From: Candidatus Microgenomates bacterium
GTDB lineage: Bacteria; Patescibacteriota; Microgenomatia; UBA1400; UBA12108
DNA: 64,000 nucleotides
Assembly (NCBI GenBank): GCA_003576945.1
Contig: QEVC01000001.1
Span: 26,129-90,128, forward strand
Direction of reading: 5' to 3'
The notes under the pieces are model-generated. The model ran no database searches. It worked only from the letters and a program-made list of their open reading frames with translations, and was not told where the DNA came from. A program made the translations under genes and the position numbers. Position 1 is the stretch's first letter, and each line of letters opens with the position of its first letter. Shown piece after piece: positions 21,702 to 59,112 of the stretch.

Positions 21702-22896
21702 GAGAGTAGTTTACTACTTTAAGGTAGATTAAGAGGATTAGTAGTCCCTGGGGTGAAGTGAGGAGATAGTGGTCGAGAAGGAAGAGGGGAAGAACTGGAA
21801 TTATGTATATCAGTAAAGCCGTAAAGCCGTAAAGCCGTGAAACAAAGAATACTACAACCAAGACACCAACAGCTCCAAACCAGGAGAGAAAGAGGGTAAA
21901 ACTATTATGGTCGGGCTGGAGGAGGCGGTGGGAAGGAGAGAGCATAGGATAGGTCGAAATGCTGGCACTAGCACCGGTTCCAAAAACTGGGTAGTTTTTG
22001 ATTACGTCGAGAGAGAGGGTCTGGAGAGAGAGGCGCTCCCCAATGGATAAATCGGCGCGCGGCGGAAGAAAAAAGGAAAAATAGCTGATTGCCAGGGTAA
22101 ATAGTGCTGCAAAATATAGAAGTCTCAGGCGAAGGTATTTGAGAAAATAGAGCGGGATGATAAGACCAAAAAGAGCGAGAGCAGAAGAGTGGCTCTGGGT
22201 GAGGAAGATGCCAAGAGTAGTTGCGATAGTAAATAGTACATAGTACATAGTTGATGGTTTGAGTCGCATAATGATAAGGAGACTGATCACTAGCCAACCA
22301 GCGAGGATGTTGGGGTGACTAAAGGTACCATAGGCTCTCAATATGACTTGGTCCATAAACGTCGCAAGGGCGACCCCTGGCTGCCCCACAGCAACCATTC
22401 GTTCCCCTAGGTAGTAGAGCGGTCCTTGCAGTGCGTGACCTCGTGCTAATTGGGCAATGGAGAGGATAAGTTGAAATGTGGTGGCAATGAGAAGAGGGAG
22501 CTTGAGCGAGATCAAGTGCTTGATAGAGAGTGATTGAACAAATAGGAAATAGAGTAATAAATGAAGAGACCAGGTGAGAGTGGTCATAGGATTGGTGGAA
22601 AAGATGAGGTTGGTGAGCAAAATTAGAGTAATTCCTTCGACCCTAAAATGGGACAATACAGTCTTAGGAAGGATGGCTAAATAAAATAGAATTAGGATGT
22701 CCAGCAAGTAAAGAGTGGGGGCGAGGTAGTCGACCCTAATCCCGTAAACAAGAGACGAGCTGGGCCAAAAGTGAAACCCAAGCTGAGTGGAGGAGAGGAG
22801 AAAGATGAGAAACAGTAGGATGCGTCTAGCTCTTGGGAGCCAAGATAAGACGACGGTCGATCCCAGTGCCCTCAGAATAGGTGGTAAGACTATCAT
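21679..22896 (-). CDS. O-antigen ligase/polymerase-like (Wzy/WaaL family) membrane protein
   Basis: 405 aa and polytopic. The annotated start overlaps the jag 3' end, so the true start may be internal or non-ATG. Confidence 0.45.
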   Translation of the reverse strand: MIVLPPILRALGSTVVLSWLPRARRILLFLIFLLSSTQLGFHFWPSSSLVYGIRVDYLAPTLYLLDILILFYLAILPKTVLSHFRVEGITLILLTNLIFSTNPMTTLTWSLHLLLYFLFVQSLSIKHLISLKLPLLIATTFQLILSIAQLARGHALQGPLYYLGERMVAVGQPGVALATFMDQVILRAYGTFSHPNILAGWLVISLLIIMRLKPSTMYYVLFTIATTLGIFLTQSHSSALALFGLIIPLYFLKYLRLRLLYFAALFTLAISYFSFFLPPRADLSIGERLSLQTLSLDVIKNYPVFGTGASASISTYPMLSPSHRLLQPDHNSFTLFLSWFGAVGVLVVVFFVSRLYGFTALLIYIIPVLPLFLLDHYLLTSPQGLLILLIYLKVVNYSHVKSRRQ

Positions 22897-24018: not shown

Positions 24019-24025
24019 ACTTTGT

Positions 24026-24058
24026 GTAAATCCGTATAGCCGTTAATCAGTAAATCGG
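24026..24058. repeat. 8-nt periodic repeats (GTAAATCC GTATAGCC GTTAATCA GTAAATCG) filling the yidD-yidC intergenic leader
   Basis: Same motif family as the leader of yidC paralogue 1 (1058-1094). Confidence 0.6.
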
Positions 24059-24285: not shown

Positions 24286-24633
24286 TTAGTATTTAGGGTT
24301 AGTAATATCGGAAAGTGCAGAGCTGAGTTCGGAAATGATTTGTTGTTTGGTGGCGGTGGATTTTTTGAGTGGAAGTGGCTTAAATACCACTACTACATCC
24401 ACTTTTTGATCTTTAATTTGAGACCAGAGAGAATCATAAGCCAGACGCTTAAGATAATTGCGGGTGGTTGCGAGCTTGTTCACTTTTTTGGGGACTACTA
24501 CCGCGAGTCGGCTGGCTCGCGAGGTACGTGGTACATAGTACATGGTGCATAGTGGGGTCACGATTTTTTTGCTTCTTGCGCGAAAGCGCAAAAACTCGGT
24601 ACGGAGGGGAAACTTATCTTGTCTGCGAATCAT
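24286..24633 (-). CDS. rnpA: RNase P protein component
   Basis: 115 aa, basic, RNR-like motif region ([10 protein letters not shown]), located between rpmH and yidD. Confidence 0.8.
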
Positions 24634-24919: not shown

Positions 24920-26266
24920 ATGGATGCTACGACAGTGTGGAAAGCAGTCTTAACAGATCTAGAGCTGTCCCTATCTAAGACTTATTTTGCTGGATATATC
25001 AAGCCACTCTCGCTAATATCGCTTACGGAGACTGAGGGGGGAGTGGTGGCAACCATAATGTGCCCGACCAGGTATCACGTACAAATGATGGAAGAAAAGT
25101 ATGGGAAACATGTAATTAGAGCAATTGAACGCGTGGTGGGGCAAAACTGCACCATTGAATACGAAATTGGAAAAGAGACTAGCTTGGAGATGGGTGGGGG
25201 ACTACCACTATTTCAATCCATACCTAAGCCAGCAACTATTTTGGGGAGTGGGTCACACAACCTAAACCCGCGCCTAACTTTTGATACCTATATCGTTGGC
25301 TCATCCAACAACTTTGCATATGCGGCGGCGCAGGGTGTAGCTAAAAGTCCGGGGACAAGGTATAACCCACTCTTTATCTATGGAGGAGTAGGACTCGGTA
25401 AGACTCACCTGATGCACGCGATTGGCCACGCGGTTTATACGGACCATCCAGACTGGGACATTATGTATATCTCGGCTGAGACTTTTGGGAGCGACTTAAT
25501 CGCGAGCCTGCAAAACAAGAGAACGGCGGCTTTTAAGAAAAAATATCGGGCACCTAACCTATTATTAATCGATGATATCCAATTCATTGCGGGCAAGGAA
25601 TATATTCAGGAAGAGTTTTTTCACACGTTTAATGAACTTTATATGTCTCAGAGACAAATCATCCTTACCTCAGACAGGCCCCCGCAGGAAATTTCTAGAC
25701 TAGAGGAGAGACTATCCTCTCGCTTTATGGGAGGGCTCATGGTAGATGTGCAGGCGCCGGACTTTGAGACAAGAATGGCAATACTGACCCAGAAATGTAT
25801 GGCTTTAGGTCTCGAAGTCTCACCTGACCTAATTTCGCTACTGGCAGAAAAGGCCGTGGGAAATATCCGAGAATTAGAGGGAACACTACAGGCAATCTTA
25901 GCTAAAGCACATTCTGAAAAGAGGCCGATTGACCCCGACTTAATCAGGGAACACTTTGGGGCAGCCTCAGAGCGGCGAAACCATAGGGTAAGACCCCAGG
26001 CAGTGATTAACAAAACGGCGCAGTATTTTAGCTATAAGGTTGCCGAATTAACGGGGAGTAGCCGCAAAGCCCCGCTCACGGCAGCGAGGCATACAGCGAT
26101 GTACCTACTATACGAAGAGCTGTCGCTGCCTTATGTACAAATAGGAGAGTTGTTTGGAGGGAGAGACCACACGACGGTGATTCATGCTGTTGAAAAAATT
26201 AAGGAAGAGTTAAAAAGCAACCCGCGGCTCTCGAAAACTCTTGCAGATATTCGACATGAGCTTTAA
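24920..26266 (+). CDS. dnaA: Chromosomal replication initiator DnaA
   Basis: Walker [20 protein letters not shown]+ sensor motifs, and C-terminal DNA-binding domain [18 protein letters not shown]. Confidence 0.9.
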
Positions 26267-26508
26267 GTTATCCACATTCTTTGTGGATAAGTATGAGGAA
26301 AAGTGCGGGAAAAAATGAGGAAAACTTGAGTAAAAATGAGGATAAGTATGTTATCAACAATTAAATGGAGTTTATCCCCAAGCTTTTCCGGGTTGTTTTC
26401 CACCGCTTCCGCCAGACTTCTATCCACATATCCACAGACCCTAACAACACTATAACTATGTATTAAGCATTTAGTATTTGGTAGTATGTATAAGAAAAGA
26501 GAGGTGTT
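26267..26508. promoter_or_regulatory. Probable oriC: DnaA-box cluster plus three AAAATGAGGAWAA 13-mer-like repeats (candidate unwinding element)
   Basis: TTATCCACA at 26268-26276, TGTGGATAA at 26282-26290, CTATCCACA at about 26420-26428, ATATCCACA at 26429-26437, TTATCCCCA at 26372-26380. Repeats aatgagga(a/t)aa at about 26294, 26314 and 26335, in an AT-rich stretch. Confidence 0.6.
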
Positions 26509-27609
26509 ATGAAAATAGAAATTCTCCAAGAAGAATTGCTTAAAGGGCTTTTAGTTGTGTCGCGTGCAGTTTCAAGCAGGACACAGTTGCCAGTTTTGTC
26601 GGCGGTAAAAATTGAGGCACTGGCAACAGAACTTGTTCTATCAGCGACAGATTTAGAAATTGGGGTAAGGCACATTGTGTCTGCGAAAGTAGATGCACGG
26701 GGAGTGGTTGCGGTACCAGCAAAAACCTTTAGCGAACTACTAACCACACTCGCACCTGGAAAGTTGTCGATTGAGCTAAAAGAGCAAAATCTGATTATTA
26801 AATCTAAAGGCTTCACCGGCAAAATTGCGACAGTAGATGCTTCAGAGTTTCCAACCCTCCCCGAAATGAAAGAATCGCTAATTGGAGTGTCGGCATCTGA
26901 GCTTATGAAAGGGGTTTCAAACGTTGGTTTCGCGAGCGCGAAGGAGTCACTACGCCCTGTGCTTACCGGAGTGCTAATGGAGGTCTCAGAGAGCTTGCGG
27001 GTGGTTGCAACTGATGGGTTTCGACTAGCGGTTTCCACAATTGGAATTAAGGGTGCCACCATCAAGGCGCAGTCTTTGCTAGTCCCTGCACGAGCACTAT
27101 TTGAATGCGGAAAGATTCTTAGAGAGGGAGTTATTAAGATCGGATATCTTCCTGAATCGAAGCAAGTTTTATTTGTGGGAGAGCAAACACAGCTTAGTTC
27201 ACAGATAATTGAAGGAAATTTCCCTGATTACAACAAAATATTACCAAAAGAGTTTGTGACTAGAATGGTTGTCCCAAGAGAAGAGCTGCTTTCAGCGGTT
27301 AAGACAGCACTTGTTTTTGCCAGAGACAACTCAAACATGATGCGCTGGCGGGTGGAGGGTGGAAGACTTATGATTTCATCTAGTTCGAGTGGAAGTGGGG
27401 AAGGATTAGTTGAGGTTATGGTAAAAGCTGAAGGGGAAGAGCCCTTGGAAGTGGTATTTAACGCAAAGTATGTTATCGATTATTTAACTCTTCTGGACAA
27501 TGAGTCGGTGTGGGTTGGGCTTGGCGGAAAGCTGGCTCCAGGAATGATCGCGGAGAGCGAAAATGGCAGGGATAATGCTTTCTACGTGGTAATGCCGATT
27601 AACGCCTAG
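26509..27609 (+). CDS. dnaN: DNA polymerase III beta sliding clamp
   Basis: 366 aa with three-domain clamp architecture. N-terminus MKIEILQEELLKGL... Confidence 0.9.
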   Translation: MKIEILQEELLKGLLVVSRAVSSRTQLPVLSAVKIEALATELVLSATDLEIGVRHIVSAKVDARGVVAVPAKTFSELLTTLAPGKLSIELKEQNLIIKSKGFTGKIATVDASEFPTLPEMKESLIGVSASELMKGVSNVGFASAKESLRPVLTGVLMEVSESLRVVATDGFRLAVSTIGIKGATIKAQSLLVPARALFECGKILREGVIKIGYLPESKQVLFVGEQTQLSSQIIEGNFPDYNKILPKEFVTRMVVPREELLSAVKTALVFARDNSNMMRWRVEGGRLMISSSSSGSGEGLVEVMVKAEGEEPLEVVFNAKYVIDYLTLLDNESVWVGLGGKLAPGMIAESENGRDNAFYVVMPINA

Positions 27610-29540
27610 GAGTTTTGAGTTGTTTTAGGCGATTGACTGATAGGCTCGGTTTTAGTGGGAGGTGCGGCTTGTGCTGGTTGTGCTGGCACAGTGTTTATTT
27701 TTTGAGAAAGGGCCGCCTGAGCTTGTTTAAACTGTTGGGCCTCTGCCTCTTCTTTTTTGCGGAGAGCCTCCCTAGGATCAGTGGTAATTAGAGCATGCTC
27801 CTCGGGGGAGGCCACGACGCGCATGGCAACGTGATTTTGGCCGGCGAAAAAGAGTGATTCACCGACTTCGGCAGTGAGGAGTAGATGTCGTTCTCCTTGG
27901 GAGAGATAGAAAACATTGGCTAGTTTTTCGATGGCACTGGTGCTTTGTTTCATTAAAACCTGAATGCTGGCGTTACTAACGATAGCCTTGCCATGATCAT
28001 CTTTTAAGAAATCTTCAACGTCTTGGGTGATGGTAGTGAGGCCTAAGAAATATTTACGTGCACGTTTGGCGATACCATAGAGAAAGGTGGCGGAGTCTTC
28101 GTTTTTCATAAGATACCAGGCCTCATCAACCACCAAGAGGCGTCGCTTGAGGTCTCTTTTTACTTTGGTCCAGATATAGTCAAGAATAATAAAAATGGCA
28201 GTGGGTCTGAGTTCATCCTGAAGGTTTTTGATGCCAAAAACGGTTAGTTGTTTGCCAAAATCGACATTGCTCTTTTGAGAGAAAATCCCTTGGAAACTAC
28301 CCTTAACATACTTCTCGAGGCGGTCGGCGAGACCGCGAGCCACGGCCTCTTCCATACCAACTAGCGCTTTGTAGAGATCTTCCATGAGGGGTGGCTCGTT
28401 CTTGTGCGTTGTTGGGTCTCGATTGATGCCCTTCATCTGATATGTCATAACGAGCGCTCGATCCAAAAGCGCTTCTTCTTGGGCGGTGACGTCGCCCAGC
28501 ATGATTTTGAGGAGGGAGTGAAGGGAGATGATTTTCATGGCGAGTTCGTTTTCGTCGGGTTCGGCGAGCTGGGGAAGCTCGAAGGGGTTAATACGGTTGG
28601 GGGAGGTAAAACTAAAGTCGATGTAGGTGCCGTTAACGGTCTGGGCCATTTTGCGATATTCGTCTTCGGGATCGATAATAATAACCTCGGTTTCGAAGAG
28701 GAGAGAGCGAAGAATTTCTAGTTTGACCATATAACTTTTACCGGAGCCCGACTTGGCAAAAACTACCATGTTAGCGTTCTCCAGACTAAAGCGATCAAAG
28801 ACAACGAGACTATCATTATGTTCGTTGATGCCATACATAATACCTTCGTTGGCGGTTAGCTCACTACTAGTAAAGGGGAAGGTAGTGGCGAGGCTAGTAG
28901 TGTCCATGTTGCGATTGATTTTTAAGAAATCTTTACCCATGGGGAGAGTGGTTTTAAAACCGTCTTCGATTTGAAGGGTAGCGGTTTTGGCGACGATTAG
29001 GAGAGCACCCAAGGTGGATTTGATGTGGTTGGTGACTTTGTCGAGCACGTCTCTTTTGTCATCACGAATGGTTATATAGAGACCAAACTGAAAAAAACGT
29101 TCGGCGCCTTTGGCAAGCTGCTCTTGTAGACTCCGAGCATCCTCTAGTTTGACCTGGGTATCAATATTAATAATCTTGCCACGCTGAATATCTCCCTGGA
29201 GCTCAGCTTCCATTTCGGCGATTTTGCGCCGCAAGTCCTCGATGACCCCCTTGCCGTCGACGGGATAAATAAACATTGAAATACTAAGAGAGTGGGGAAA
29301 ATTGATTAAGGGTGAGAGCCAGTTGGCGTTAACAAAGCGGGGGTAGCCGGCGACGAATAGAGTGCGGTAGTACGTGTCGTTGATTTTGACGTCAGACCAG
29401 TCGACCTCGATCGCCTCAGGAGCAATAATGTCTTTTACATTGGTGGTACCAGTTGCAAGGATTTGAATGGGGGGAGAGACCGCGGGACCCTGCTCTTCGG
29501 TTTTTTTGTTTTTGCCAGCAAAAGGAAAGGGCAAGTTCAT
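27606..29540 (-). CDS. VirB4/TraC-family T4SS ATPase (Gram-positive PrgJ/ConE-like) with a Pro/Gln-rich C-tail
   Basis: Walker A VVFAKSGSGKSYMV, a Walker B region, and N-terminal IAPEAIEVDWSDVKINDTYYRTLFVAGYPRFVNANWL typical of the VirB4 N-domain. Stop codons overlap dnaN convergently. Confidence 0.7.
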   Translation of the reverse strand: MNLPFPFAGKNKKTEEQGPAVSPPIQILATGTTNVKDIIAPEAIEVDWSDVKINDTYYRTLFVAGYPRFVNANWLSPLINFPHSLSISMFIYPVDGKGVIEDLRRKIAEMEAELQGDIQRGKIINIDTQVKLEDARSLQEQLAKGAERFFQFGLYITIRDDKRDVLDKVTNHIKSTLGALLIVAKTATLQIEDGFKTTLPMGKDFLKINRNMDTTSLATTFPFTSSELTANEGIMYGINEHNDSLVVFDRFSLENANMVVFAKSGSGKSYMVKLEILRSLLFETEVIIIDPEDEYRKMAQTVNGTYIDFSFTSPNRINPFELPQLAEPDENELAMKIISLHSLLKIMLGDVTAQEEALLDRALVMTYQMKGINRDPTTHKNEPPLMEDLYKALVGMEEAVARGLADRLEKYVKGSFQGIFSQKSNVDFGKQLTVFGIKNLQDELRPTAIFIILDYIWTKVKRDLKRRLLVVDEAWYLMKNEDSATFLYGIAKRARKYFLGLTTITQDVEDFLKDDHGKAIVSNASIQVLMKQSTSAIEKLANVFYLSQGERHLLLTAEVGESLFFAGQNHVAMRVVASPEEHALITTDPREALRKKEEAEAQQFKQAQAALSQKINTVPAQPAQAAPPTKTEPISQSPKTTQNS

Positions 29541-29709
29541 ATGGAATTAGTATAACGCAAGTTAAGGGGTTTTTGTTTTTGGTTCGGCGCATTCCACCAG
29601 AAAAAGCGGTCTATCTCCGCCTGGTGGCGGAGCGACCACGCGAATCGGTCTACCCGCCCTGCGCTAAATTTTTCTTTGTGAAATTGCGCCTGCACCATTT
29701 TACAAAAAC
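29541..29709 (-). repeat. Copy 1 of a roughly 120-nt conserved structured element in the 5' leader of the VirB4 gene
   Basis: Shares ggttcggcgcattccaccagaaaaagcggtctatct...gcccgccctgcgctaaatttttctttgtgaaattgcgc with 30349-30501. The internal hairpin CTCCGCC-TGGT-GGCGGAG becomes CTGAGTC-TGGT-GACTCAG in copy 2. Confidence 0.6.
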
Positions 29710-30348
29710 TTACTTGGCGATATTGGGGGCGACAACTGGCGTTTCATAGTCGGCGGCGGTAGTGAATTTTTGTCCCTTAACCGTGCTGTTATAGTAACCA
29801 TGAAAGAGCTTCATGAGGTTTTGGCTGTTTAGCTGTTGGGCGGTGAGACCAATACGGGTTAGCTGTTTAATAATATGGTCTCGTTTAGGTTCGAGATCTG
29901 CCTTGGCACGACTTAACAACTCTTCTGTTATTTCGACTTTGCCTGACAAGGTAACCATTTGGTAGGAAACGATAATATAAAACTTTTTATCGAGGACGTT
30001 TTGCTCCTGGATGGTGGTCTCTATAAAATTCCGGTACTGACTCATGCGTGTTTTCATGGTTTCGTCTTTTAGTTTTTTCTCCTGGGCAACGAGGAGTTCG
30101 AGGTAACTACTAATATCCTTTTTTTCAGACTTGATTACGATTTGAACGGGGAAACTAAGAGAGTTTAATAGACCGGCATAAGCATAGATGGTAGCGTCTT
30201 GCTCTTCCTCAGAGAGGAGGCCAAAGTTGATCGCGGAAGTTTGGATAACAACACTGATTAGGCCACCACGAAGCACAACAACATCGTCTTGAATGGTTTC
30301 TACTTCGAGGTGGTCTTGGGTGGTTGCGACAATAATAGAGTCGGACAT
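29710..30348 (-). CDS. Soluble protein with a VirB4-N-domain-like motif, function unknown
   Basis: VVVLRGGLISVVIQTSAINFGLLSEEEQDATIYAYAGLLNSLSFPVQIVIKS resembles the N-terminal module of Gram-positive VirB4 proteins. Inference only. Confidence 0.4.
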   Translation of the reverse strand: MSDSIIVATTQDHLEVETIQDDVVVLRGGLISVVIQTSAINFGLLSEEEQDATIYAYAGLLNSLSFPVQIVIKSEKKDISSYLELLVAQEKKLKDETMKTRMSQYRNFIETTIQEQNVLDKKFYIIVSYQMVTLSGKVEITEELLSRAKADLEPKRDHIIKQLTRIGLTAQQLNSQNLMKLFHGYYNSTVKGQKFTTAADYETPVVAPNIAK

Positions 30349-30501
30349 GATATTAGTATAACAGTTAGGGTTCGGCGCATTCCACCAGAAAAAGCGGTCT
30401 ATCTGAGTCTGGTGACTCAGCGACCTCGAGCTCGGGCTGCCCGCCCTGCGCTAAATTTTTCTTTGTGAAATTGCGCTTCACCCCTTTGTTAAGTTAACAA
30501 A
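30349..30501 (-). repeat. Copy 2 of the roughly 120-nt structured element in the 5' leader of the 212-aa gene
   Basis: See 29541-29709. There are compensatory substitutions in the hairpin. Confidence 0.6.
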
Positions 30502-31533
30502 CTAGGAGTTTGCCTGAATTTCAAATGGTTGGATAATTTGGTTTTGGACTATGAGTTGTTGGGCGGGAAAGGTGTGTCCATCCGCTTCAACCTCAATCCG
30601 GTACGTGCCGGGGGAGAGGGGCGTGCTGGTCGCAAATTGACCGAGAGCATTGGTTTTCATGGCTCGGGCGGGTACGCCGGTTCCATCTAGTACTTGAACA
30701 ATCGCGCCCTCGATAAGCTTGCCATCTTTACTAGTGGTGATCCCAACTATTAGGTTGGGACTACGGGGTGGGACGGGGAGGTTGATGGATTTTAGTTTGG
30801 TATTTGCGGCTGACTGTGGGGCGACCGCAACTGGTTTGGGGGATGCAGAAAAGATGAGGTTGTTGGGAACTGTAGCCTCTTGGGGTTTTTCGACTCTTGA
30901 TTTTGAGTCTACCACGGTAGTCGGTTGAACCTTAGGAACGACGATTGGCTTGGGAGGACTGACTGGAGGTGGAACTGTTTTTTCGGCGGCCTTTAATTTG
31001 CGGACAGTGATCGCCGGCTTGTCAAAAACGATGTCGGTTTGAGGTTTAGGGTCGGTAGTTGAGGTTATGGGCGCTGGGGCATTTGAAAAAAGAGTATTAA
31101 GCGATTTTACTTGAGAGTTTTCTGCATCACTGAGATCGGAGTCGGTGGCGAGAGAGACTTTTTGAGTAGGTGCCTTGATCGTTTTGGTGATAGTGTTAGT
31201 TGCGGCGATGGGATGGGCAGTAAAAGTAAAAATACTCGGAACCTTGTTGGTTTTTTTCCAGGTAAAGCGCGTGGGTTTGTAGATCGCATTTACAAAGTTA
31301 ATGATCCATTGGTCAAGGGGCCTGTCTTCGATGGGGAAAAATGCGAGGGCGATACCAAAGAAAACTGAAAGGAGAATCAAGGGAGCTTTAAAAATAAAAA
31401 GGAGATTACTACTATAGAAAAGGACGGCGAGGAGTAGGCCGGCGGCTAGTTCGAGAAACTGTTTGAGAGTCATGTCGCCCACGAGGCGGAACTGGTACTG
31501 GGTGACGTTTTGAGGGACAGGGTGCTGGTTCAT
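30502..31533 (-). CDS. Two-TM N-terminal (VirB3/PrgI-like?) membrane protein with a Pro-rich linker and a C-terminal beta-sandwich-like domain
   Basis: Start taken at ATG 31531-33 (MNQHPVPQNVTQYQFRLVGDMTLKQFLELAAGLLLAV...); the track used an upstream TTG. Two hydrophobic helices precede a PPVSPPKP linker. Confidence 0.4.
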   Translation of the reverse strand: MNQHPVPQNVTQYQFRLVGDMTLKQFLELAAGLLLAVLFYSSNLLFIFKAPLILLSVFFGIALAFFPIEDRPLDQWIINFVNAIYKPTRFTWKKTNKVPSIFTFTAHPIAATNTITKTIKAPTQKVSLATDSDLSDAENSQVKSLNTLFSNAPAPITSTTDPKPQTDIVFDKPAITVRKLKAAEKTVPPPVSPPKPIVVPKVQPTTVVDSKSRVEKPQEATVPNNLIFSASPKPVAVAPQSAANTKLKSINLPVPPRSPNLIVGITTSKDGKLIEGAIVQVLDGTGVPARAMKTNALGQFATSTPLSPGTYRIEVEADGHTFPAQQLIVQNQIIQPFEIQANS

Positions 31534-31580
31534 GAATATAGTATAAAGTACCAAGTAAAAAGTACCTAGTGTATGGGATT

Positions 31581-41841: not shown

Positions 41842-41913
41842 AACTCCATTTTAACCAAATATTTGGAGTTGTCAACTCCAAATATTTGCTTGTTAGTACA
41901 AATAGAACTCGAG

Positions 41914-45312: not shown

Positions 45313-45316
<4 letters not shown>

Positions 45317-45600
45317 GATTGGAAGCCAAAGTTGAATTGAGTAACTGGAGCGCCGGTTAGGTTTTCGATGAGGAGGAGAATGAGCCAGGAGATAATCGCG
45401 AGGGCGAGGCCGCCGACAGCGAGACCAATAGTTTGTTTACCACCTTGTAATCCCTTGGGATCACCACCGCTCGTTAGGATTTTGAAGCCACCGACTAAGA
45501 TCATAATAAAAGCAATCATGCCAATTAAAGGGATTATGGCTGATAAAACATTGCCAAAGTAGTCTGGTAGTTGATCGAGGCGTGCGGCGTCTGAGTCCAT
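45313..45600 (-). CDS. Small two-TM VirB2/TrbC-like (pilin-like) protein, array member 1
   Basis: 95 aa: hydrophobic helix, FKILTSGGDPKG loop, second helix LAVGGLALAIISWLILLLIENLTG. The 4-nt overlap (ATGA) with the upstream gene suggests translational coupling. Confidence 0.5.
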
Positions 45601-45614
45601 GTTTGTAATTATAG

Positions 45615-45646
45615 TACAAAAACCCCGCTTACGCGGGGTTTATTGC
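45615..45646 (-). terminator. Rho-independent terminator inside the pilin-like array
   Basis: CCCCGC-TTAC-GCGGGG hairpin. On the minus strand it is followed by TTTTTG. Confidence 0.5.
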
Positions 45647-45666
45647 ATTGTTTGTAACAAAAAGTC

Positions 45667-46020
45667 TTAGTAAGCAGTTGGAGGAGTGATGTTGTCGTTG
45701 AGGATCGAGATACCAAAGAAGTATTGGATGATCAACATGACGGCCCAGGCGGAGGCGACGACGGCGAGACCGACGAGTGCAGCGGTGATACGATCGCGCG
45801 CTTCTTGGGTTTTACCTTTATCTCCACCACTAGTGATCCATTGAATACCACCCCAGATGAGGTACATAAAGACGAGGAGCGCAGAGACGAGGAGAGCGCC
45901 TTGGACGGCACCTTTGATCAACGTTCCAATATTGGTGATTGCGACGTTATCTGGCTTGCCGATTGAGAGATCTGGAGCAGCTGGTGCAGCCATAACTTTT
46001 TCAACGATTGAGAATGACAT
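45667..46020 (-). CDS. Small two-TM pilin-like protein, array member 2
   Basis: ...YLIWGGIQWITSGGDKGKTQEARDRITAALVGLAVVASAWAVMLIIQYFFGI. Confidence 0.5.
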   Translation of the reverse strand: MSFSIVEKVMAAPAAPDLSIGKPDNVAITNIGTLIKGAVQGALLVSALLVFMYLIWGGIQWITSGGDKGKTQEARDRITAALVGLAVVASAWAVMLIIQYFFGISILNDNITPPTAY

Positions 46021-46040
46021 ATTTATCTCCTTATGTATTA

Positions 46041-46069
46041 GTACTTAGTACATAGTACATGGTACATGG
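46041..46069. repeat. GTACATAG-type 8-nt periodic repeat immediately upstream of array member 2
   Basis: gtacttagtacatagtacatggtacatgg. Related copies at 22235-22250, 46811-46833 and 53188-53216. Confidence 0.5.
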
Positions 46070-46109
46070 TTATAATTCTAGTATTTCTGATTATAGCAAT
46101 AATATTAAG

Positions 46110-46454
46110 TTATTTGGTAATCCCAATACCAAAGAAGTAATCGACGAGCAGATAGACTGCCCAAGCTGAGGCGACGATGGCGAGACCAACAATTGCCTGA
46201 GTGATTTTGTTCCTGGCCTCCTCGAGCTTGCCTTTGTCGCCACCGGCAGTGATCCAGTTGATCCCGCCGTAGACGAGATACATAAACGTGGCTAGACCTG
46301 CAACCAAGATCACTGCTGAGAAACTACGTGAGACAAAGGTTCCTAGATCTTCATTAATTGCTACCCTAGACTTAACCTGATCGTCGACGTTGATCGCAAA
46401 ACTACCACCTTGGGCGGATGCAGTTTTGATTAGTTTTAAAGTTGTAAAGTCCAT
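46110..46454 (-). CDS. Small two-TM pilin-like protein, array member 3
   Basis: ...YLVYGGINWITAGGDKGKLEEARNKITQAIVGLAIVASAWAVYLLVDYFFGI. Confidence 0.5.
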   Translation of the reverse strand: MDFTTLKLIKTASAQGGSFAINVDDQVKSRVAINEDLGTFVSRSFSAVILVAGLATFMYLVYGGINWITAGGDKGKLEEARNKITQAIVGLAIVASAWAVYLLVDYFFGIGITK

Positions 46455-46467
46455 AAAGTTTTTGAAG

Positions 46468-46863
46468 CTACCCTGCGGTAGGCCAGATAATATTTAATAA
46501 ATCAAGTCCGATGGCAGACTCGATAAACTTAACTACGACGTAGCTGGCTGCTAGGACAGCTAGACCAATTAATCCCTGGGTGATTTTGGCTCTACTCTCG
46601 TCAAGTTTACCCTTGTCGCCACCAGCAAGGATCCAGTTGAGTCCACCCCAAAGAAAGTAGAGAAGGAAGGCTAGTCCACCAACAATTATAATGGTTTGCC
46701 AGAGAGTGGCCATGGTAATTGCGAATTGTTGGGGCGCACTGTCGGGTGATTCTCCACCTGGAATTGCAGTGTTGGTGATCGCGGCGCGCGCGAGAGGGGC
46801 ACGAGAAGATAGTACATAGTACGTGGTACATAGCTGGAGGAAAATGATCTGTTTAAGTTTCAT
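46468..46863 (-). CDS. Small two-TM pilin-like protein, array member 4 (with signal peptide)
   Basis: MKLKQIIFLQLCTTYYVLSS... then YFLWGGLNWILAGGDKGKLDESRAKITQGLIGLAVLAASYVVV. Confidence 0.5.
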   Translation of the reverse strand: MKLKQIIFLQLCTTYYVLSSRAPLARAAITNTAIPGGESPDSAPQQFAITMATLWQTIIIVGGLAFLLYFLWGGLNWILAGGDKGKLDESRAKITQGLIGLAVLAASYVVVKFIESAIGLDLLNIIWPTAG

Positions 46864-46865
46864 AT

Positions 46866-47228
46866 TTAATTAAAGGTTAGTCCTTGAATAAGCACGCCGG
46901 GCTCGAGGATGTTAAGACCGAGGGCGGCACTCACGATCCAGGTGATGGAGTAGGAGAGAACGATAATAATTAAACCAATGGCGCCGCCAGTCATCATGCC
47001 TTTGGCCTTGTCAATTTTGCCTTTGTCACCACCGGCAGTAATCCAGTTAAGACCTCCCAAAAGAAAGTAGAGAACAAATGCGATTCCCGCAATAACAGTT
47101 AAAACTACAAGAGTGTTACTGATTAGTTTTTCGACAGCACTAGTACTACCATCGATGCCACCACCAGGTTGATAGCCGCCGGGAGTGGTGATGGTTTGAA
47201 AATCTAAGGCTTTGACTTTGGTAATCAT
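46866..47228 (-). CDS. Small two-TM pilin-like protein, array member 5
   Basis: ...YFLLGGLNWITAGGDKGKIDKAKGMMTGGAIGLIIIVLSY. Confidence 0.5.
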   Translation of the reverse strand: MITKVKALDFQTITTPGGYQPGGGIDGSTSAVEKLISNTLVVLTVIAGIAFVLYFLLGGLNWITAGGDKGKIDKAKGMMTGGAIGLIIIVLSYSITWIVSAALGLNILEPGVLIQGLTFN

Positions 47229-47914: not shown

Positions 47915-48454
47915 ATGGATCATCTGGTAGAACAGGTATTATCAGGGCAAAAGGGAGCGGCGACGCGGTTTTACCATAAATATAGTCCGATGTTGCGGAG
48001 GTTTTTAAATGCCAAATTGCCGAGCCCGGCAGATGCCGAGGAATTGCTTCAAGACACATTTTTGTCTGTTTTTGATTCTCTGCCTCTTTATCGAGGAGAG
48101 TGTAGTGTTATTTCTTGGATTTATTCGATCGCGAGACATGAAGTGGCGGATTTTTATCGCAAGCGGTATGTACGAGAACTAGTGGAAAAAACCAACCCCT
48201 TGTTTGAAGAGCTCTTGGAGACAGTTGAAACCCCAGAAAAAGTTTGGGATAAGACTAAGGTGCGAGCAAGATTTTTTGGGGCGTACAAAAGCCTTAATCA
48301 ATCATACCAAGATGTGTTGTCGTACCGGTACGAATTATCACTGTCTGTTAAGGAGATTGCAGTGAAAATGAGACTTACTTTTAAAGCGACAGAATCACTG
48401 CTTTATCGGGCGCGAGTCGCATTTAGCCTCGCTTATAACAATTATGCAGAGTGA
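47915..48454 (+). CDS. ECF-type sigma-70 family RNA polymerase sigma factor
   Basis: Region 2 is ELLQDTFLSVFDSLPLYRGECSVISWIYSIARHEVADFYRKRY. Region 4 is YQDVLSYRYELSLSVKEIAVKMRLTFKATESLLYRARVAF. A TATAAT sits 12 nt upstream of the start. Confidence 0.7.
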   Translation: MDHLVEQVLSGQKGAATRFYHKYSPMLRRFLNAKLPSPADAEELLQDTFLSVFDSLPLYRGECSVISWIYSIARHEVADFYRKRYVRELVEKTNPLFEELLETVETPEKVWDKTKVRARFFGAYKSLNQSYQDVLSYRYELSLSVKEIAVKMRLTFKATESLLYRARVAFSLAYNNYAE

Positions 48455-51252: not shown

Positions 51253-52047
51253 ATGAAACGACTAATAATGGTGAAGCTAGGAGGCGGAGTAATCACAGAT
51301 AAGAACGTGCACTATGGATTGCGGGAGGATGTGTTATCCAGACTAGCTAGGGAGATAGCGGAAGGGTATCGAGAACTAGGGGAGACTAAACTAATTATTG
51401 GGAACGGGGCGGGGAGTTTTGCCCATTTTTCGGCGCATAAATACCGGACGACCGAAGGATTTGTAGATGAGAACTCGCGTATTGGGATGGGGTGGGTGCG
51501 ACACGATGCGGTTAAACTCAACCAAATAGTATGTGAACAATTATTGTCAGCTAATGTCCCGGTTTTCTCCTATTCACCATCATCTTTAATGAGCATAGAT
51601 CAGCGAAAAACGAAGAAAATATTTATTGATCCAGTGGTAGATGGTTTAGCGATGGGGATAGTGCCATTAGTTTATGGGGATGTAATGGTAGACGAGACTC
51701 GTGGATGTGATGTGTATTCGACTGAACGAGTGTTTGACGAGCTAGCGACTGTTTTTGCCAAAGATTATCGGGTACGAGTAATCCATGTGAGCGCAGAGGA
51801 GGGGGTTTATAAAACTGGACAAGCAAGCATTTTTGATGTTATTGATGCCGGTAATTTTAATGAGGTTAAGCAACACCTGGGAGGTTCGAAAGGAGTAGAT
51901 GTATCTGGGGGGATGTTGCACAAAGTAGAGGAGTGTCTGGCTTTAACAAAACTAGGAGTCGAGAGTTTAATAGTGAGTGGGATGATTGAGGGTAGAGTAA
52001 GGGATAGTATATTAGGAAAAACAGTTGAGGGGACAAAAATATGTTAG
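51253..52047 (+). CDS. Isopentenyl phosphate kinase (amino-acid-kinase fold)
   Basis: MVKLGGGVITDKNVHYGL...LIIGNGAGSFAHFSAHKY is the amino-acid-kinase-family glycine-rich loop in an IPK-like arrangement. Confidence 0.6.
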   Translation: MKRLIMVKLGGGVITDKNVHYGLREDVLSRLAREIAEGYRELGETKLIIGNGAGSFAHFSAHKYRTTEGFVDENSRIGMGWVRHDAVKLNQIVCEQLLSANVPVFSYSPSSLMSIDQRKTKKIFIDPVVDGLAMGIVPLVYGDVMVDETRGCDVYSTERVFDELATVFAKDYRVRVIHVSAEEGVYKTGQASIFDVIDAGNFNEVKQHLGGSKGVDVSGGMLHKVEECLALTKLGVESLIVSGMIEGRVRDSILGKTVEGTKIC

Positions 52048-52706
52048 ACCAAGCCAATATTCCAAATCATATTGCCATAATAATGGATGGAAATAGAAGA
52101 TGGGCTAAGGCCAAGGGCCTGCCAGTTATTGCAGGGCATGCCTACGCGGTAGAGAAGACCGTTGAAGAGTTGATAGAGCGCACGGGTGAGCTGGGAGTAG
52201 AGTATCTGACACTCTGGGCATTTTCGACTGAGAACTGGGGGAGAGCGAAAGATGAGGTGGCGGGCTTGATGAACCTGTTTAGGAAAGCGTTGGAAACTAA
52301 GGTAGGCAAGTTTATTGAGAAGGGGGCGAGACTTAAATTAATCGGGGATATGAGCAGGTTTAGTCAGGATATCCAGGAAGGGATGATGAGAGTGATGGAA
52401 AAGAGCAAGCAGAATACTAAAATTACTGTGAGTTTTGCCCTTAATTATGGGGGGAGAGATGAGATAAAGCGGGCAGTGGAAGTTGGGGGAGTAGATTTTG
52501 AGAAACATCTGGATACTTACGCTATGCCGGAGCCAGATCTGATTATTAGAACAGGAGGGGAGCAGAGAACGAGTGGGTTTTTGATGTGGAGTGGGGCGTA
52601 TGCGGAGTGGTATTTTACTGACCTACTATTCCCTGACTTTACACCACAAAAATTAGATTTGGCGATCGAGGAGTATCAAAAGAGGCAGAGGCGGTTTGGG
52701 AAGTGA
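52041..52706 (+). CDS. uppS: Undecaprenyl-diphosphate synthase (cis-prenyltransferase)
   Basis: HIAIIMDGNRRWAKAKGL...LTLWAFSTENWGRAKDEV...RTGGEQRTSGFLMW. Confidence 0.85.
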   Translation: MLDQANIPNHIAIIMDGNRRWAKAKGLPVIAGHAYAVEKTVEELIERTGELGVEYLTLWAFSTENWGRAKDEVAGLMNLFRKALETKVGKFIEKGARLKLIGDMSRFSQDIQEGMMRVMEKSKQNTKITVSFALNYGGRDEIKRAVEVGGVDFEKHLDTYAMPEPDLIIRTGGEQRTSGFLMWSGAYAEWYFTDLLFPDFTPQKLDLAIEEYQKRQRRFGK

Positions 52707-52856
52707 GGGGTAAATTGCTCACTAAATTAAGTTCGTCGCACCGTCACACAAAAAACCGATCATAAATTTCTGCTGAAATTTTGATCTATGTCTCGTCCTA
52801 CACGGACTGCGAATATTTTTTTGTTGTGAGATACGACTGCACTTAATGTTCGCAAT

Positions 52857-53249
52857 TTACCCAACAATGTCAATTTTGAAGACAACCTGGAGGATCTGGG
52901 CGATCCAGAAGGCGAGAAAGATTACGGCAAAACCAATGAGGGCGCTAGTAATAGTTTTTTTACCTTTTTCCTGGGCTTCTTTATCAGCCGCACCAGCGAG
53001 CATAGTAAAGCCGCCAGAGACGAGCATGCCAAAGAGAATAATCCCAGCGAGGGTTAGGAGCGTGGGGAGAATAGAGCTAATAATACTCCCTAGATTTCTG
53101 GTGTCGACAGATCCACCCCCAAGACCAAGGGCATTTTCGTAGGCACCGTAGTCAGCAAAGTCGGCTGCTCGTGCTTGAGGAACGAGAGTACATAGTACAT
53201 AGTACATAGTACATAGTTGAAAAGAGATATTTTTTAATTTTTTATTCAT
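52857..53249 (-). CDS. Small two-TM pilin-like protein (eighth paralogue, with signal peptide)
   Basis: MNKKLKNISFQLCTMYYVLCTLVPQARA... then MLVSGGFTMLAGAADKEAQEKGKKTITSALIGFAVIFLAFWIAQILQ. Confidence 0.5.
   Translation of the reverse strand: MNKKLKNISFQLCTMYYVLCTLVPQARAADFADYGAYENALGLGGGSVDTRNLGSIISSILPTLLTLAGIILFGMLVSGGFTMLAGAADKEAQEKGKKTITSALIGFAVIFLAFWIAQILQVVFKIDIVG
53188..53216. repeat. (GTACATAG)x3.5 tandem repeat encoding the signal-peptide core LCTMYYVLC
   Basis: Seen directly. Confidence 0.55.
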
Positions 53250-53251
53250 GA

Positions 53252-53668
53252 TCAGTTAAATCCTGGTAATTGAATGATATCACCCGCCACAATCCGAAGC
53301 AGGGTGACTGAGAAGATGATAAAGAGAAGTCCGGTAATCGCGCTAGTAAAGAGTTCTTTGCCTTTTTTTACCTGTTCGGCGTTATCGCCACCTGTCATAA
53401 TCTGGATGGTGGCAATGAGCATAATAACGAGCGAGATGGCGCCGGCGGTACCGGCGAGGAACTTGAGGAGCGAGACAGTAAAACCTTTAGTTTCAACGCT
53501 TAAACACCCAAGCGCAGTATCAACTGCGGTGTCGCCACAATCACCGTTTGGATTGATGGCGTGAGCGGGTGAGGAAAGAGCGGAAAAGGAGATTAAGACC
53601 GAAGCTAAGATGGTCGCGAGATATGTTAGGATAGAGACATGGTTTCTCTCTGGAAAAAGCTTTTTCAT
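53252..53668 (-). CDS. Secreted two-TM protein ending in IIQLPGFN (LPGF module; VirB2/TrbC-like candidate)
   Basis: Signal peptide, two Cys, then LLKFLAGTAGAISLVIMLIATIQIMTGGDNAEQVKKGKELFTSAITGLLFIIFSVTLLRIVAGDIIQLPGFN. This is homologous to the C-terminus of the 960-aa protein. Confidence 0.5.
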   Translation of the reverse strand: MKKLFPERNHVSILTYLATILASVLISFSALSSPAHAINPNGDCGDTAVDTALGCLSVETKGFTVSLLKFLAGTAGAISLVIMLIATIQIMTGGDNAEQVKKGKELFTSAITGLLFIIFSVTLLRIVAGDIIQLPGFN

Positions 53669-58216: not shown

Positions 58217-58654
58217 ATGGTTATGATAGTTAACAAATTGGCCAAAAGAGATTACAGCATTACTGACACGTGGGTGGCGGGAGTGGTGCTCACGGGTGCG
58301 GAGGTAAAGAGCCTGCGTGGGGAGCGAGGAAGCCTGAGAGATGGGTACGTAAAGATAATTAACGGTGAATTGTTTTTGATAGGAGCAGATATTCCGATGT
58401 ATGGCCACTTTTCCGGCCAGAACTACGATGCCAAAAGATCAAGAAAACTACTACTCAAGGCAACAGAGATTGAGAAGATTGTGATGAAGATAGAGGGAAA
58501 GAACCTGACACTCGTGCCACTGAGATTATTTTTTAAAGGACGATGGGTAAAGTGCGAGATAGGATTAGGTAAGGGCAAGAAAGAGTGGGAGAAGCGAGCG
58601 GATATTAAGAAGCGGGATGTGGAGAGGGAGTTGGCGAAGGCAATGAAGAATTAG
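58217..58654 (+). CDS. smpB: SsrA-binding protein
   Basis: DYSITDTWVAGVVLTGAEVKSLRGERGSLRDGYVKIINGELFLIGADIPMY and a basic C-tail. Confidence 0.8.
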   Translation: MVMIVNKLAKRDYSITDTWVAGVVLTGAEVKSLRGERGSLRDGYVKIINGELFLIGADIPMYGHFSGQNYDAKRSRKLLLKATEIEKIVMKIEGKNLTLVPLRLFFKGRWVKCEIGLGKGKKEWEKRADIKKRDVERELAKAMKN

Positions 58655-58701
58655 TCGTAAATCCGTAGAGCAGTATATCCGTTTATCTGTGTATCTCTGT
58701 G

Positions 58702-59112
58702 TGGAGACGGAGGGCAGTGAGCCCTCGTCCGGAGCGAGCTTTTAACATCATCTACATACTTGTTTAGTGTTTAAGAGTTTTACCTCTCTAAATATAGGAA
58801 ACTAACAACCAACTATTTAGCGAGGGTAGTCGTTTGTTTGGGTCTGAGCGACTAGTTCAGACTTACGGCTCATGTTTGTTTCCGCCTGTTATTTTCCCAT
58901 GAGCGAGTAGATAACGAGACGCAGAATAATTAAGCAGTGTATGCGTAATTAGCTGAACCAAAGATGGCATTTTCCATTGCTAGAAAAGCATTTTTGGCTG
59001 TCTGTACAAAAGATTTGACAGATATTTTTTGACTCTGTTTTACGACTTCTCTAGTCAAAGTCGGTATGCAGATGTTAAAGAGCGATTCGCCTCGTCAAAG
59101 CAAGACGTCCCC
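58702..59112 (-). ncRNA. ssrA: Candidate tmRNA (ssrA), convergent with smpB
   Basis: The minus strand starts GGGGACGTCTTGCTTTGACGAGGCGAAUCG (compare E. coli GGGGCUGAUUCUGGAUUCGACGGGAUU). It ends GGAC-GAGGG-CTCACTG-CCCTC-CGTCTCC-A, a T-arm plus a 7-nt acceptor 3' strand that pairs with the 5' GGGGACG, then the discriminator. About 411 nt. An open frame at nt 40-183 ends ...FGSANYAYTA-TAA and could be the tag. Confidence 0.5.

Follow-up and report, generated by a model that had tools for sequence, protein, structure and literature searches.

Palindromic intergenic repeats of ~115 nt dispersed in genomes of Candidatus Woesebacteria, with the predicted layout of a two-way terminator

The DNA studied here, called the window in the following, is a chromosomal segment of 64,000 nt (G+C content 44.7%) from a bacterium of the candidate phyla radiation (CPR) that belongs to the Microgenomates/Woesebacteria group (contig QEVC01000001.1, positions 26,129 to 90,128). 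It contains dnaA and dnaN, a tmRNA gene and yidC. On the minus strand it carries a chromosomal gene cluster resembling a type IV secretion system (T4SS), which encodes VirB4-like, TraC-like and PrgI-like proteins, a CHAP-domain protein and several T4SS pilins (Table 1). Proteins identical to the TraC-like protein of 212 amino acids are present in metagenome-assembled genomes (MAGs) named Microgenomates or Woesebacteria. Origin-proximal chromosomal T4SS clusters have been described as typical of Patescibacteria (bioRxiv 10.1101/2025.01.22.634366). The subject of this study is a structured DNA element residing in the spacers in front of the VirB4-like gene (29541-29709, 169 nt) and the TraC-like gene (30349-30501, 153 nt).

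The two spacers have a stretch of ~110 nt in common, which is 88-89% identical. A preliminary description of this DNA had reported a duplicated element of ~120 nt at this place. The duplication was confirmed and the shared blocks quoted in that description were present and exact in both spacers, but the element turned out to be ~115 nt long and to possess a third, diverged copy elsewhere in the window. Searches of the window for the quoted blocks with up to three mismatches disclosed only these two sites, while the shuffled sequences gave an expectation of 0. Both copies are bounded by a long imperfect inverted repeat (GGCGCAATTTCACAAAGAAAAA ... TTTTTCTGGTGGAATGCGCC), within which two inner hairpins are enclosed. 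Copies 1 and 2 lie 13-18 nt past the stop codon of the preceding gene. The hairpin to which attention had been drawn reads CTCCGCC-ACCA-GGCGGAG in copy 1 and CTGAGTC-ACCA-GACTCAG in copy 2 on the minus strand, and the differences are indeed fully compensatory. In copy 1, these 7 bp (29615-29632) are the inner part of a larger hairpin, P3, with a free energy of -18.4 kcal/mol, which is followed by GC and TTTTT and whose seven inner pairs all covary in the family described below. Folding of copy 1 gave a minimum free energy of -54.9 kcal/mol (z = -4.86 against shuffled sequences) and a similar z-score was obtained for copy 2 (-4.84). The second inner hairpin, P2, is intact in copy 2 (30429-30452) and copy 3 (52790-52813). 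Copy 3 fills the spacer between two convergent genes, which were assigned by Pfam to a T4SS pilin (52857-53249, minus strand) and uppS (52041-52706, plus strand). Its hairpin extends to 52708-52862, and this extended fold reached -51.4 kcal/mol (z = -7.39).

Table 1. Coordinates of the three copies, their parts, the putative promoter boxes and neighboring genes (window numbering; R1 and R2, covariance models)
Feature	Position	Strand	Remarks
Copy 1, 116-nt core	29581..29696	-	Between TraC-like and VirB4-like genes; R1 115.0 bits, R2 105.9 bits
Copy 1, hairpin P3	29608..29637	-	GGTC GCT CCGCC-ACCA-GGCGG AG ATA GACC; putative forward-strand terminator stem-loop
Copy 1, T-run TTTTTC	29600..29605	-	After P3; outer-stem partner is the A-run 29669-29675
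Copy 1, P2 region	29640..29665	-	AGC GCA GGGC GGGTA GACC GA ...; partly degraded
Copy 2, 115-nt core	30369..30483	-	Between PrgI-like and TraC-like genes; R1 127.4 bits, R2 120.3 bits
Copy 2, hairpin P3	30396..30425	-	-14.8 kcal/mol; followed by GC and TTTTT (30388-30393)
Copy 3, diverged "B" sub-type	52730..52843	-	R1 70.9 bits, R2 99.7 bits
Putative -10 box of VirB4-like gene, TATACT	29549..29554	-	8 nt ahead of ATG (29540); downstream of the element and outside it
Putative -10 box of TraC-like gene, TATACT	30355..30360	-	TGT-extended; 6 nt ahead of ATG (30348)
dnaA and dnaN	24920-27609	+	
VirB4-like ATPase	27606-29540	-	644 aa
TraC-like protein	29710-30348	-	212 aa
PrgI-like protein	30502-31554	-	
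tmRNA	58699-59112		

A first covariance model (R1) was built from five related sequences and then rebuilt (R2). The scan of the window with R1 uncovered copy 3, and R2 run without filters returned the three copies and no others. When one genome per species was scanned with a sequence pattern, 25 loci were retrieved from seven MAGs, and all 25 were full-length matches to the model with 60-121 bits. All seven carriers are Woesebacteria or Microgenomates or obviously related to them, some being labelled Pseudomonadales. Together with further orthologous copies in close relatives, the family covers at least seven MAGs and several metagenome contigs; one MAG harbors at least nine copies on 292 kb, another one at least eight. 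The family statistics given below refer to an alignment of 34 distinct full-length copies scoring 60-127 bits. Thus, the covariance-model search of related genomes suggested previously did yield further copies, and the alternative that had been named at the outset, a small mobile structured repeat, was essentially borne out by a dispersed and polymorphic multicopy family.

No relationship to known elements was revealed. Rfam 15 recognized only the tmRNA in the window at gathering thresholds, and the region 29500-30550 gave zero matches even at E <= 10, so that the Rfam scan assigned the element to no known family. Nothing similar turned up when copy 2 was compared by BLAST with collections of phages and plasmids or when viral contigs were scanned for the pattern. 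Eleven pattern matches outside the CPR, eight in Acidobacteria and three in other bacteria, were rejected for failing to match the covariance model; the eight acidobacterial ones represent a single coding-like stretch conserved across those genomes and are unrelated. The literature searched contains no account of dispersed palindromic repeats or terminators in the CPR. We concluded that the two copies belong to a previously undescribed family of dispersed ~115-nt palindromic intergenic repeats in Candidatus Woesebacteria. As to the range of the family, the repeat was also seen in MAGs filed as uncultured Pseudomonadales (L085, L087, L097, L102, L110, L115 and L116; L-numbers denote the loci from relatives and carrier genomes that were compared). 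The flanks of L097 are 86-95% identical to those of L096, a Woesebacteria MAG, and the Pseudomonadales labels look wrong.

The consensus fold, which applies to RNA or single-stranded DNA, is a long outer stem closing a three-way junction with the inner hairpins P2 and P3. The outer stem has imperfect but covarying arms of ~20 nt, whose conserved ends GTGCAG...CGAAC constitute terminal inverted repeats. P2 is conserved in sequence (GCA-GGNC-GGGYA-GNCC-GA), its GGGYA loop being almost invariant like the bases of the junction, whereas in P3 the sequence varies and the pairing is constant. An invariant A-run precedes P2 on its 5' side and an invariant T-run follows P3 on its 3' side. Canonical pairs made up 94.8% of the pair cells, compared to 73.2% in shuffled alignments and 36-45% when the partners were slid against each other. 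Compensatory changes were detected in 28 of 37 pairs (261 cells), a result matched by none of 500 shuffles, and the covariation analysis supported all seven helices. The data affirm that the covariation noticed earlier is genuine and that the structure is conserved. The A-run and T-run behave differently: their four pairs (columns 30-33/97-100) are A-U in 32, 33, 34 and 34 copies, respectively, with zero compensatory change, while the neighboring pairs do covary. The forward strand of the model folded better than its complement in 33 copies, whatever the direction of the neighboring genes. On this strand G-U pairs outnumbered A-C mismatches by 39 to 11, antisense contexts included, most of them lying in a few inherited columns of an alignment that was fitted to the model.

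Because identical P3 stem variants recur at other loci, the hairpin difference between copies 1 and 2 probably arose by an exchange between sub-types of the family and not by compensatory evolution in situ. The preliminary description had furthermore proposed that CCACCAG may pair alternatively with CTGGTGG further downstream, creating two mutually exclusive helices. This pairing is present in copy 1, but in the family its positions are 51.7% paired, which equals the mean of the shuffles, and its covariation is at chance level. Thus, a switch between two helices was abandoned.

Two further sequence features of the fold were noticed. One and the same 3x2 internal loop, with GCA facing GA, is seen both at the outer end (GU-GCA-GG / CC-GA-AC) and at P2; as judged from the sequence, a K-turn seems not to fit its consensus geometry. 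In addition, many copies show GCGAAC/GCGAGC-like motifs 4-8 nt beyond both ends (e.g., 52843-52862 and 52708-52730), which sometimes form a further outer helix.

P2 with its pentaloop and the bases of the junction are strictly conserved in sequence beside variable stems, which might be explained by a multicopy trans-acting or protein-binding RNA or DNA site (a small RNA family, a protein sponge, or a signal for DNA uptake or a nucleoid protein) whose recognition would depend on the GGGYA loop and the repeated GCA/GA internal loops. The occurrence of the 3x2 loop at two places and the related GA-rich motif in many flanks would be compatible with this explanation. We nevertheless consider it very unlikely, as no promoter-like motif is found ahead of the copies, which always occupy gene-end spacers and never stand alone. 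No candidate partner protein was identified, and the common descent of the copies accounts for the conserved sequence as well.

Nearly every copy is situated 7-27 nt from a stop codon, while the gap to the next start codon is far more variable. Eight copies lie between tandem genes in the same sense and eight between convergent genes, 15 are in antisense orientation between tandem genes and about two are in a divergent context. The abutting genes are functionally unrelated and encode MreB, a PIN protein, EF-P, DprA, YbaB, RpoD, LDH, thioredoxin, an ion channel, YbeY and a pilin. In the window, the three copies follow the PrgI-like, TraC-like and pilin genes, but a T4SS-specific link was dropped because the copies of other genomes adjoin unrelated housekeeping genes.

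In both T4SS spacers a TATACT hexamer suitable as -10 box is located between the element and the start codon (Table 1), which places the element ahead of the promoter and keeps it out of the transcript that starts there. In ~30 relatives of the locus, a -10-like box was found at the same spacing in every case, even where the spacer is only ~20 nt long (e.g., TAATACGCTATACTATTCTCATATG). Such hexamers (TATAAT, TATACT, TAAAAT, TAAACT) precede the ATG closely in about two dozen of 70 genes of the window and mostly end 6 nt before it (e.g., 9572, 15336, 15789, 19755, 30348, 32189, 35087, 41841, 47877), while other genes possess Shine-Dalgarno, AGGAGG-type ribosome-binding sites. Going by established promoter geometry, a -10 box so close to the ATG would give rise to leaderless transcripts. 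Reading of the 3' arm of the element revealed no TTGACA-like hexamer at the right spacing for a -35 region, and the promoters seem not to depend on a -35 box, their -10 boxes being TGn- or CGn-extended.

These observations bear on the claim that the element is a cis-regulatory RNA, i.e., an attenuator, thermosensor or riboswitch with two exclusive helices in the 5' leaders of the T4SS genes. The claim agrees with two copies ahead of consecutive T4SS genes, with the strong structure and with the T-run behind a hairpin, and the element would precede the next coding region in any transcript reading through from an upstream gene. However, the -10 boxes conserved 6-8 nt ahead of each ATG leave the element outside the genes' own transcripts, and copies occur in both orientations, behind stop codons and between convergent genes, beside neighbors unrelated in function. 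The same sites are empty or hold other inserts in close relatives. Considering also the chance-level score of the alternative helix and the missing Rfam match, we regard a leader RNA as scarcely credible and did not retain it.

The arrangement of the hairpins points to another function. In all 34 copies, the forward strand shows P3 (mean -13.6 kcal/mol), then two nucleotides, GC or GG, and then T4-6. The reverse strand contains a weaker hairpin, P2' (mean -6.9 kcal/mol), followed by AAATTTTT (also written AAAUUUUU). From these signals, the repeat is predicted to have the layout of an intrinsic terminator that works both ways, though more strongly in one direction than in the other, where it is weak. 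We therefore favor, with some though not high confidence, the interpretation that the repeats are a dispersed palindromic family similar to SPRITE, ERIC or REP sequences which acts as a bidirectional intrinsic terminator. The element would thus terminate transcription on both strands and provide a 3'-end structure. Its role within the T4SS cluster would be to insulate neighboring genes from each other, each of which has its own leaderless-type promoter. The family would spread by copy-and-paste or by recombination, copy 1 possibly being a recent local gain and copy 2 an older resident.

Several points weigh against a terminator. Termination is a prediction from the sequence, and the mechanism of mobility is putative. 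In approximately half of the copies the adjacent gene ends on the opposite strand, where it would be served only by the weak P2' with three A residues in front of the T-run. Hairpins are absent from most other gene ends of the window and many relatives lack any element at the sites in question; therefore, termination there is dispensable. A plain terminator needs neither the strictly conserved loop of P2 nor the bases of the junction nor the GCA/GA internal loops, and the better folding of the forward strand fits an element-intrinsic constraint, be it selfish or exerted on single-stranded DNA, equally well. Moreover, neither a target-site duplication in the flanks of 37 copies nor a partner transposase in the loci fetched around the copies came to light, the whole carrier genomes not having been scanned.

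The spacers on both sides of the TraC-like gene were compared between relatives whose TraC-like proteins are 97-100% identical. They differ by gain, loss and replacement of inserts. Copy 1 is missing from the orthologous site in L003, L005 and L119, and orthologs of copy 2 exist in L003, L005, L121 and L122. L003 contains the element upstream of the TraC-like gene and only a small hairpin, GTTTTTGCCTACAAAAAC, downstream of it. In L124, the upstream spacer is occupied by an unrelated AT-rich palindrome, and downstream the element sits within the loop of the hairpin seen in L003 (GTTTTTGCCTACAAAAAC), with identical flanks. L121 harbors the element upstream and, downstream, its 5' half fused to an unrelated palindrome. 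L119 exhibits a periodic-repeat insert without the element upstream and a short empty spacer downstream. The more distant relatives L010, L011 and L026 carry a different sub-type at the position of copy 1. Furthermore, one MAG possesses three near-identical copies whose similarity stops sharply at GTGCAG...CGAAC and whose flanks are unrelated. On the other hand, orthologous copies have been retained in different species, with compensatory changes, and are conserved at least as well as their coding flanks (e.g., 93% versus 63% and 83%).

Beside this element, the same two spacers contain in relatives a second family of long palindromes (AGACTGAGTGGCGATGATTTTCAG...CTGCAAAATCGCGACACTCAGTCT), to which the 5' half of our element is fused in L121, and the AT-rich palindrome. 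Periodic-repeat inserts are duplicated in both TraC-flanking spacers of one genome. Sites bearing inserts are L121 10640-10861, L122 1511-1632, L124 9874-10000 and the spacers of L004, L119, L018 and L012.

A purely selfish, non-autonomous element of the MITE (miniature inverted-repeat transposable element) or REP type is a serious rival, even if a rather unlikely one. Its folded DNA would be recognized by a transposase, for instance a single-strand-specific enzyme of the HUH/RAYT type, any terminator activity would be incidental, and the proximity to stop codons would reflect a preference for insertion into existing hairpin loops. Near-identical copies with sharp boundaries at unrelated loci of one genome are to be expected from such an element, as are sites at which, among close relatives, copies were gained, lost, replaced or left as a truncated remnant. 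Insertions of the copy 1 type reside inside the loop of a GTTTTTG-N4-CAAAAAC hairpin, which is intact in L003, and copy 3 lies within an 11-bp flanking inverted repeat. Complementarity of the flanks was only slightly above that of controls with mismatched partners (-8.6 vs. -6.6 kcal/mol) and strong only in a subset of copies. The rival also gains from the forward strand folding better irrespective of local transcription, from the loop and junction sequences conserved beyond the needs of a terminator, with their repeated GCA/GA motif, and from the dispensability of termination at these sites. Yet no consistent direct repeat was found in the flanks of the 37 copies, TA being present at few copies only, and the comparison of the filled site in L124 with the empty one in L003 was not clean. 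The transposase that it calls for was not seen near any copy. The persistence of orthologs between species, with compensatory changes and conservation at least like that of coding flanks, also speaks against it, and invariant A- and T-tracts combined with a tight spacing to the stop codon are requirements of a terminator. A more speculative idea, which we judge to be improbable, is that the thrice repeated GCA/GA internal loops and the GGGYA loop dock a dedicated CPR protein. The repeat would then be either a mobile element that targets hairpin loops without target duplication or a terminator of Woesebacteria switched by the protein.

Among known repeats, the SPRITE sequences of Firmicutes are likewise small, dispersed, non-coding, multicopy and intergenic, with a terminator-like fold (hairpin and U-tract), and are often clustered with other small repeats (PMC10969869). 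There is no sequence relationship to the CPR element, which differs by its Y-shaped double hairpin within a long outer stem and by A- and T-runs that can be read on both strands. The ERIC/IRU sequences of Enterobacteria (~127 bp against ~115 nt) are imperfect palindromes of transcribed intergenic regions as well, which occur in either orientation, reach copy numbers from tens to hundreds, are present in some strains and not in others and, at gene 3' ends, affect the fate of the mRNA (PMC10969869). They are not homologous to the Woesebacteria repeat, form a single long hairpin without a two-hairpin junction or invariant A/T tracts, and act through the exposure of RNase E sites instead of termination. 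Correia elements, MITEs of Neisseria, are small intergenic inverted-repeat elements that are co-transcribed with genes and influence their expression (PMC10969869). Unlike these, our element shows no 26-bp terminal inverted repeats, TA duplication, internal promoters, IHF site or RNase III cleavage; TA flanks were observed at some copies only. With MITEs in general it shares its short, non-coding, multicopy, dispersed and polymorphic nature and the terminal inverted repeats, but it lacks a target-site duplication of fixed length in the 37 copies with analyzed flanks.

REP/BIME sequences, extragenic palindromes located at the ends of genes and frequently between convergent ones, are conserved in structure with compensatory changes, show a short conserved motif beside the stem and have roles in termination and mRNA stabilization. 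They are single hairpins of ~20-40 nt with a 5' GTAG, present in hundreds of copies and tied to a RAYT gene, while the Woesebacteria unit comprises ~115 nt with a three-way junction and ends in GTGCAG/CGAAC. In bidirectional intrinsic terminators, an A-run and a T-run flank one or more GC-rich hairpins directly behind stop codons, also between convergent genes. Ordinary terminators of this kind are not mutually homologous and have one hairpin, whereas the repeat described here is a homologous family with two hairpins, one for each direction, to which an outer stem of ~20 bp and a conserved loop sequence are added.

CPR genomes are tiny and streamlined, and their transcription signals and mobile DNA are almost unknown. 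The covariance model can be used to annotate a recurrent gene-end signal in Woesebacteria, and the family cautions against reading such repeats as gene-specific riboswitches. The comparison of relatives indicates a rapid turnover of the intergenic regions in these reduced genomes, where several unrelated palindromic elements are inserted and replaced. Taken together, the repeat and the leaderless-type promoters provide a first sketch of how transcription units may be delimited in this lineage. If termination proves true, the repeat would be a compact two-way terminator part for a group whose genetic tools are only now appearing.

Some observations were made on the remainder of the T4SS region. 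The 212-aa protein matched weakly the N-terminal domain of TraC (PF11130; PF26593 in precomputed data), has more than 2000 homologs, and its gene is invariably located ahead of that of a VirB4-like ATPase of 630-640 aa; the two proteins may represent a split VirB4/TraC. The T4SS_pilin model (PF18895) matched seven open reading frames, four above the Pfam gathering score and three below it (21-24 bits), in two groups at 45313-47228 and 52857-53668. The first of these groups is adjoined by a gene for an ECF-type sigma factor (47915-48454).

The window also contains tandem arrays with a period of 8 nt (CCGTAAAT / CCGTATAG) or 7 nt (TAGTACA). One set is located at 1054-1091, 1707-1744, 21800-21845, 24021-24058 and 58652-58689, another one at 22224-22259, 24524-24570, 46036-46087, 46805-46851 and 53183-53234. 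Several arrays lie directly upstream of start codons, and analogous ones are found beside the -10 box in relatives (e.g., GCTGTACGCTGTAGGCTGTATGCTGTAAGCTATAAATATG in L013). Because the units resemble the -10 hexamer, the arrays may be a promoter-upstream feature of the lineage. Finally, a near-perfect hairpin of 19 bp (AACCAAATATTTGGAGTTG C CAACTCCAAATATTTGCTT), unrelated to the family, was identified at 41853-41891 in a 72-nt spacer between two minus-strand genes.

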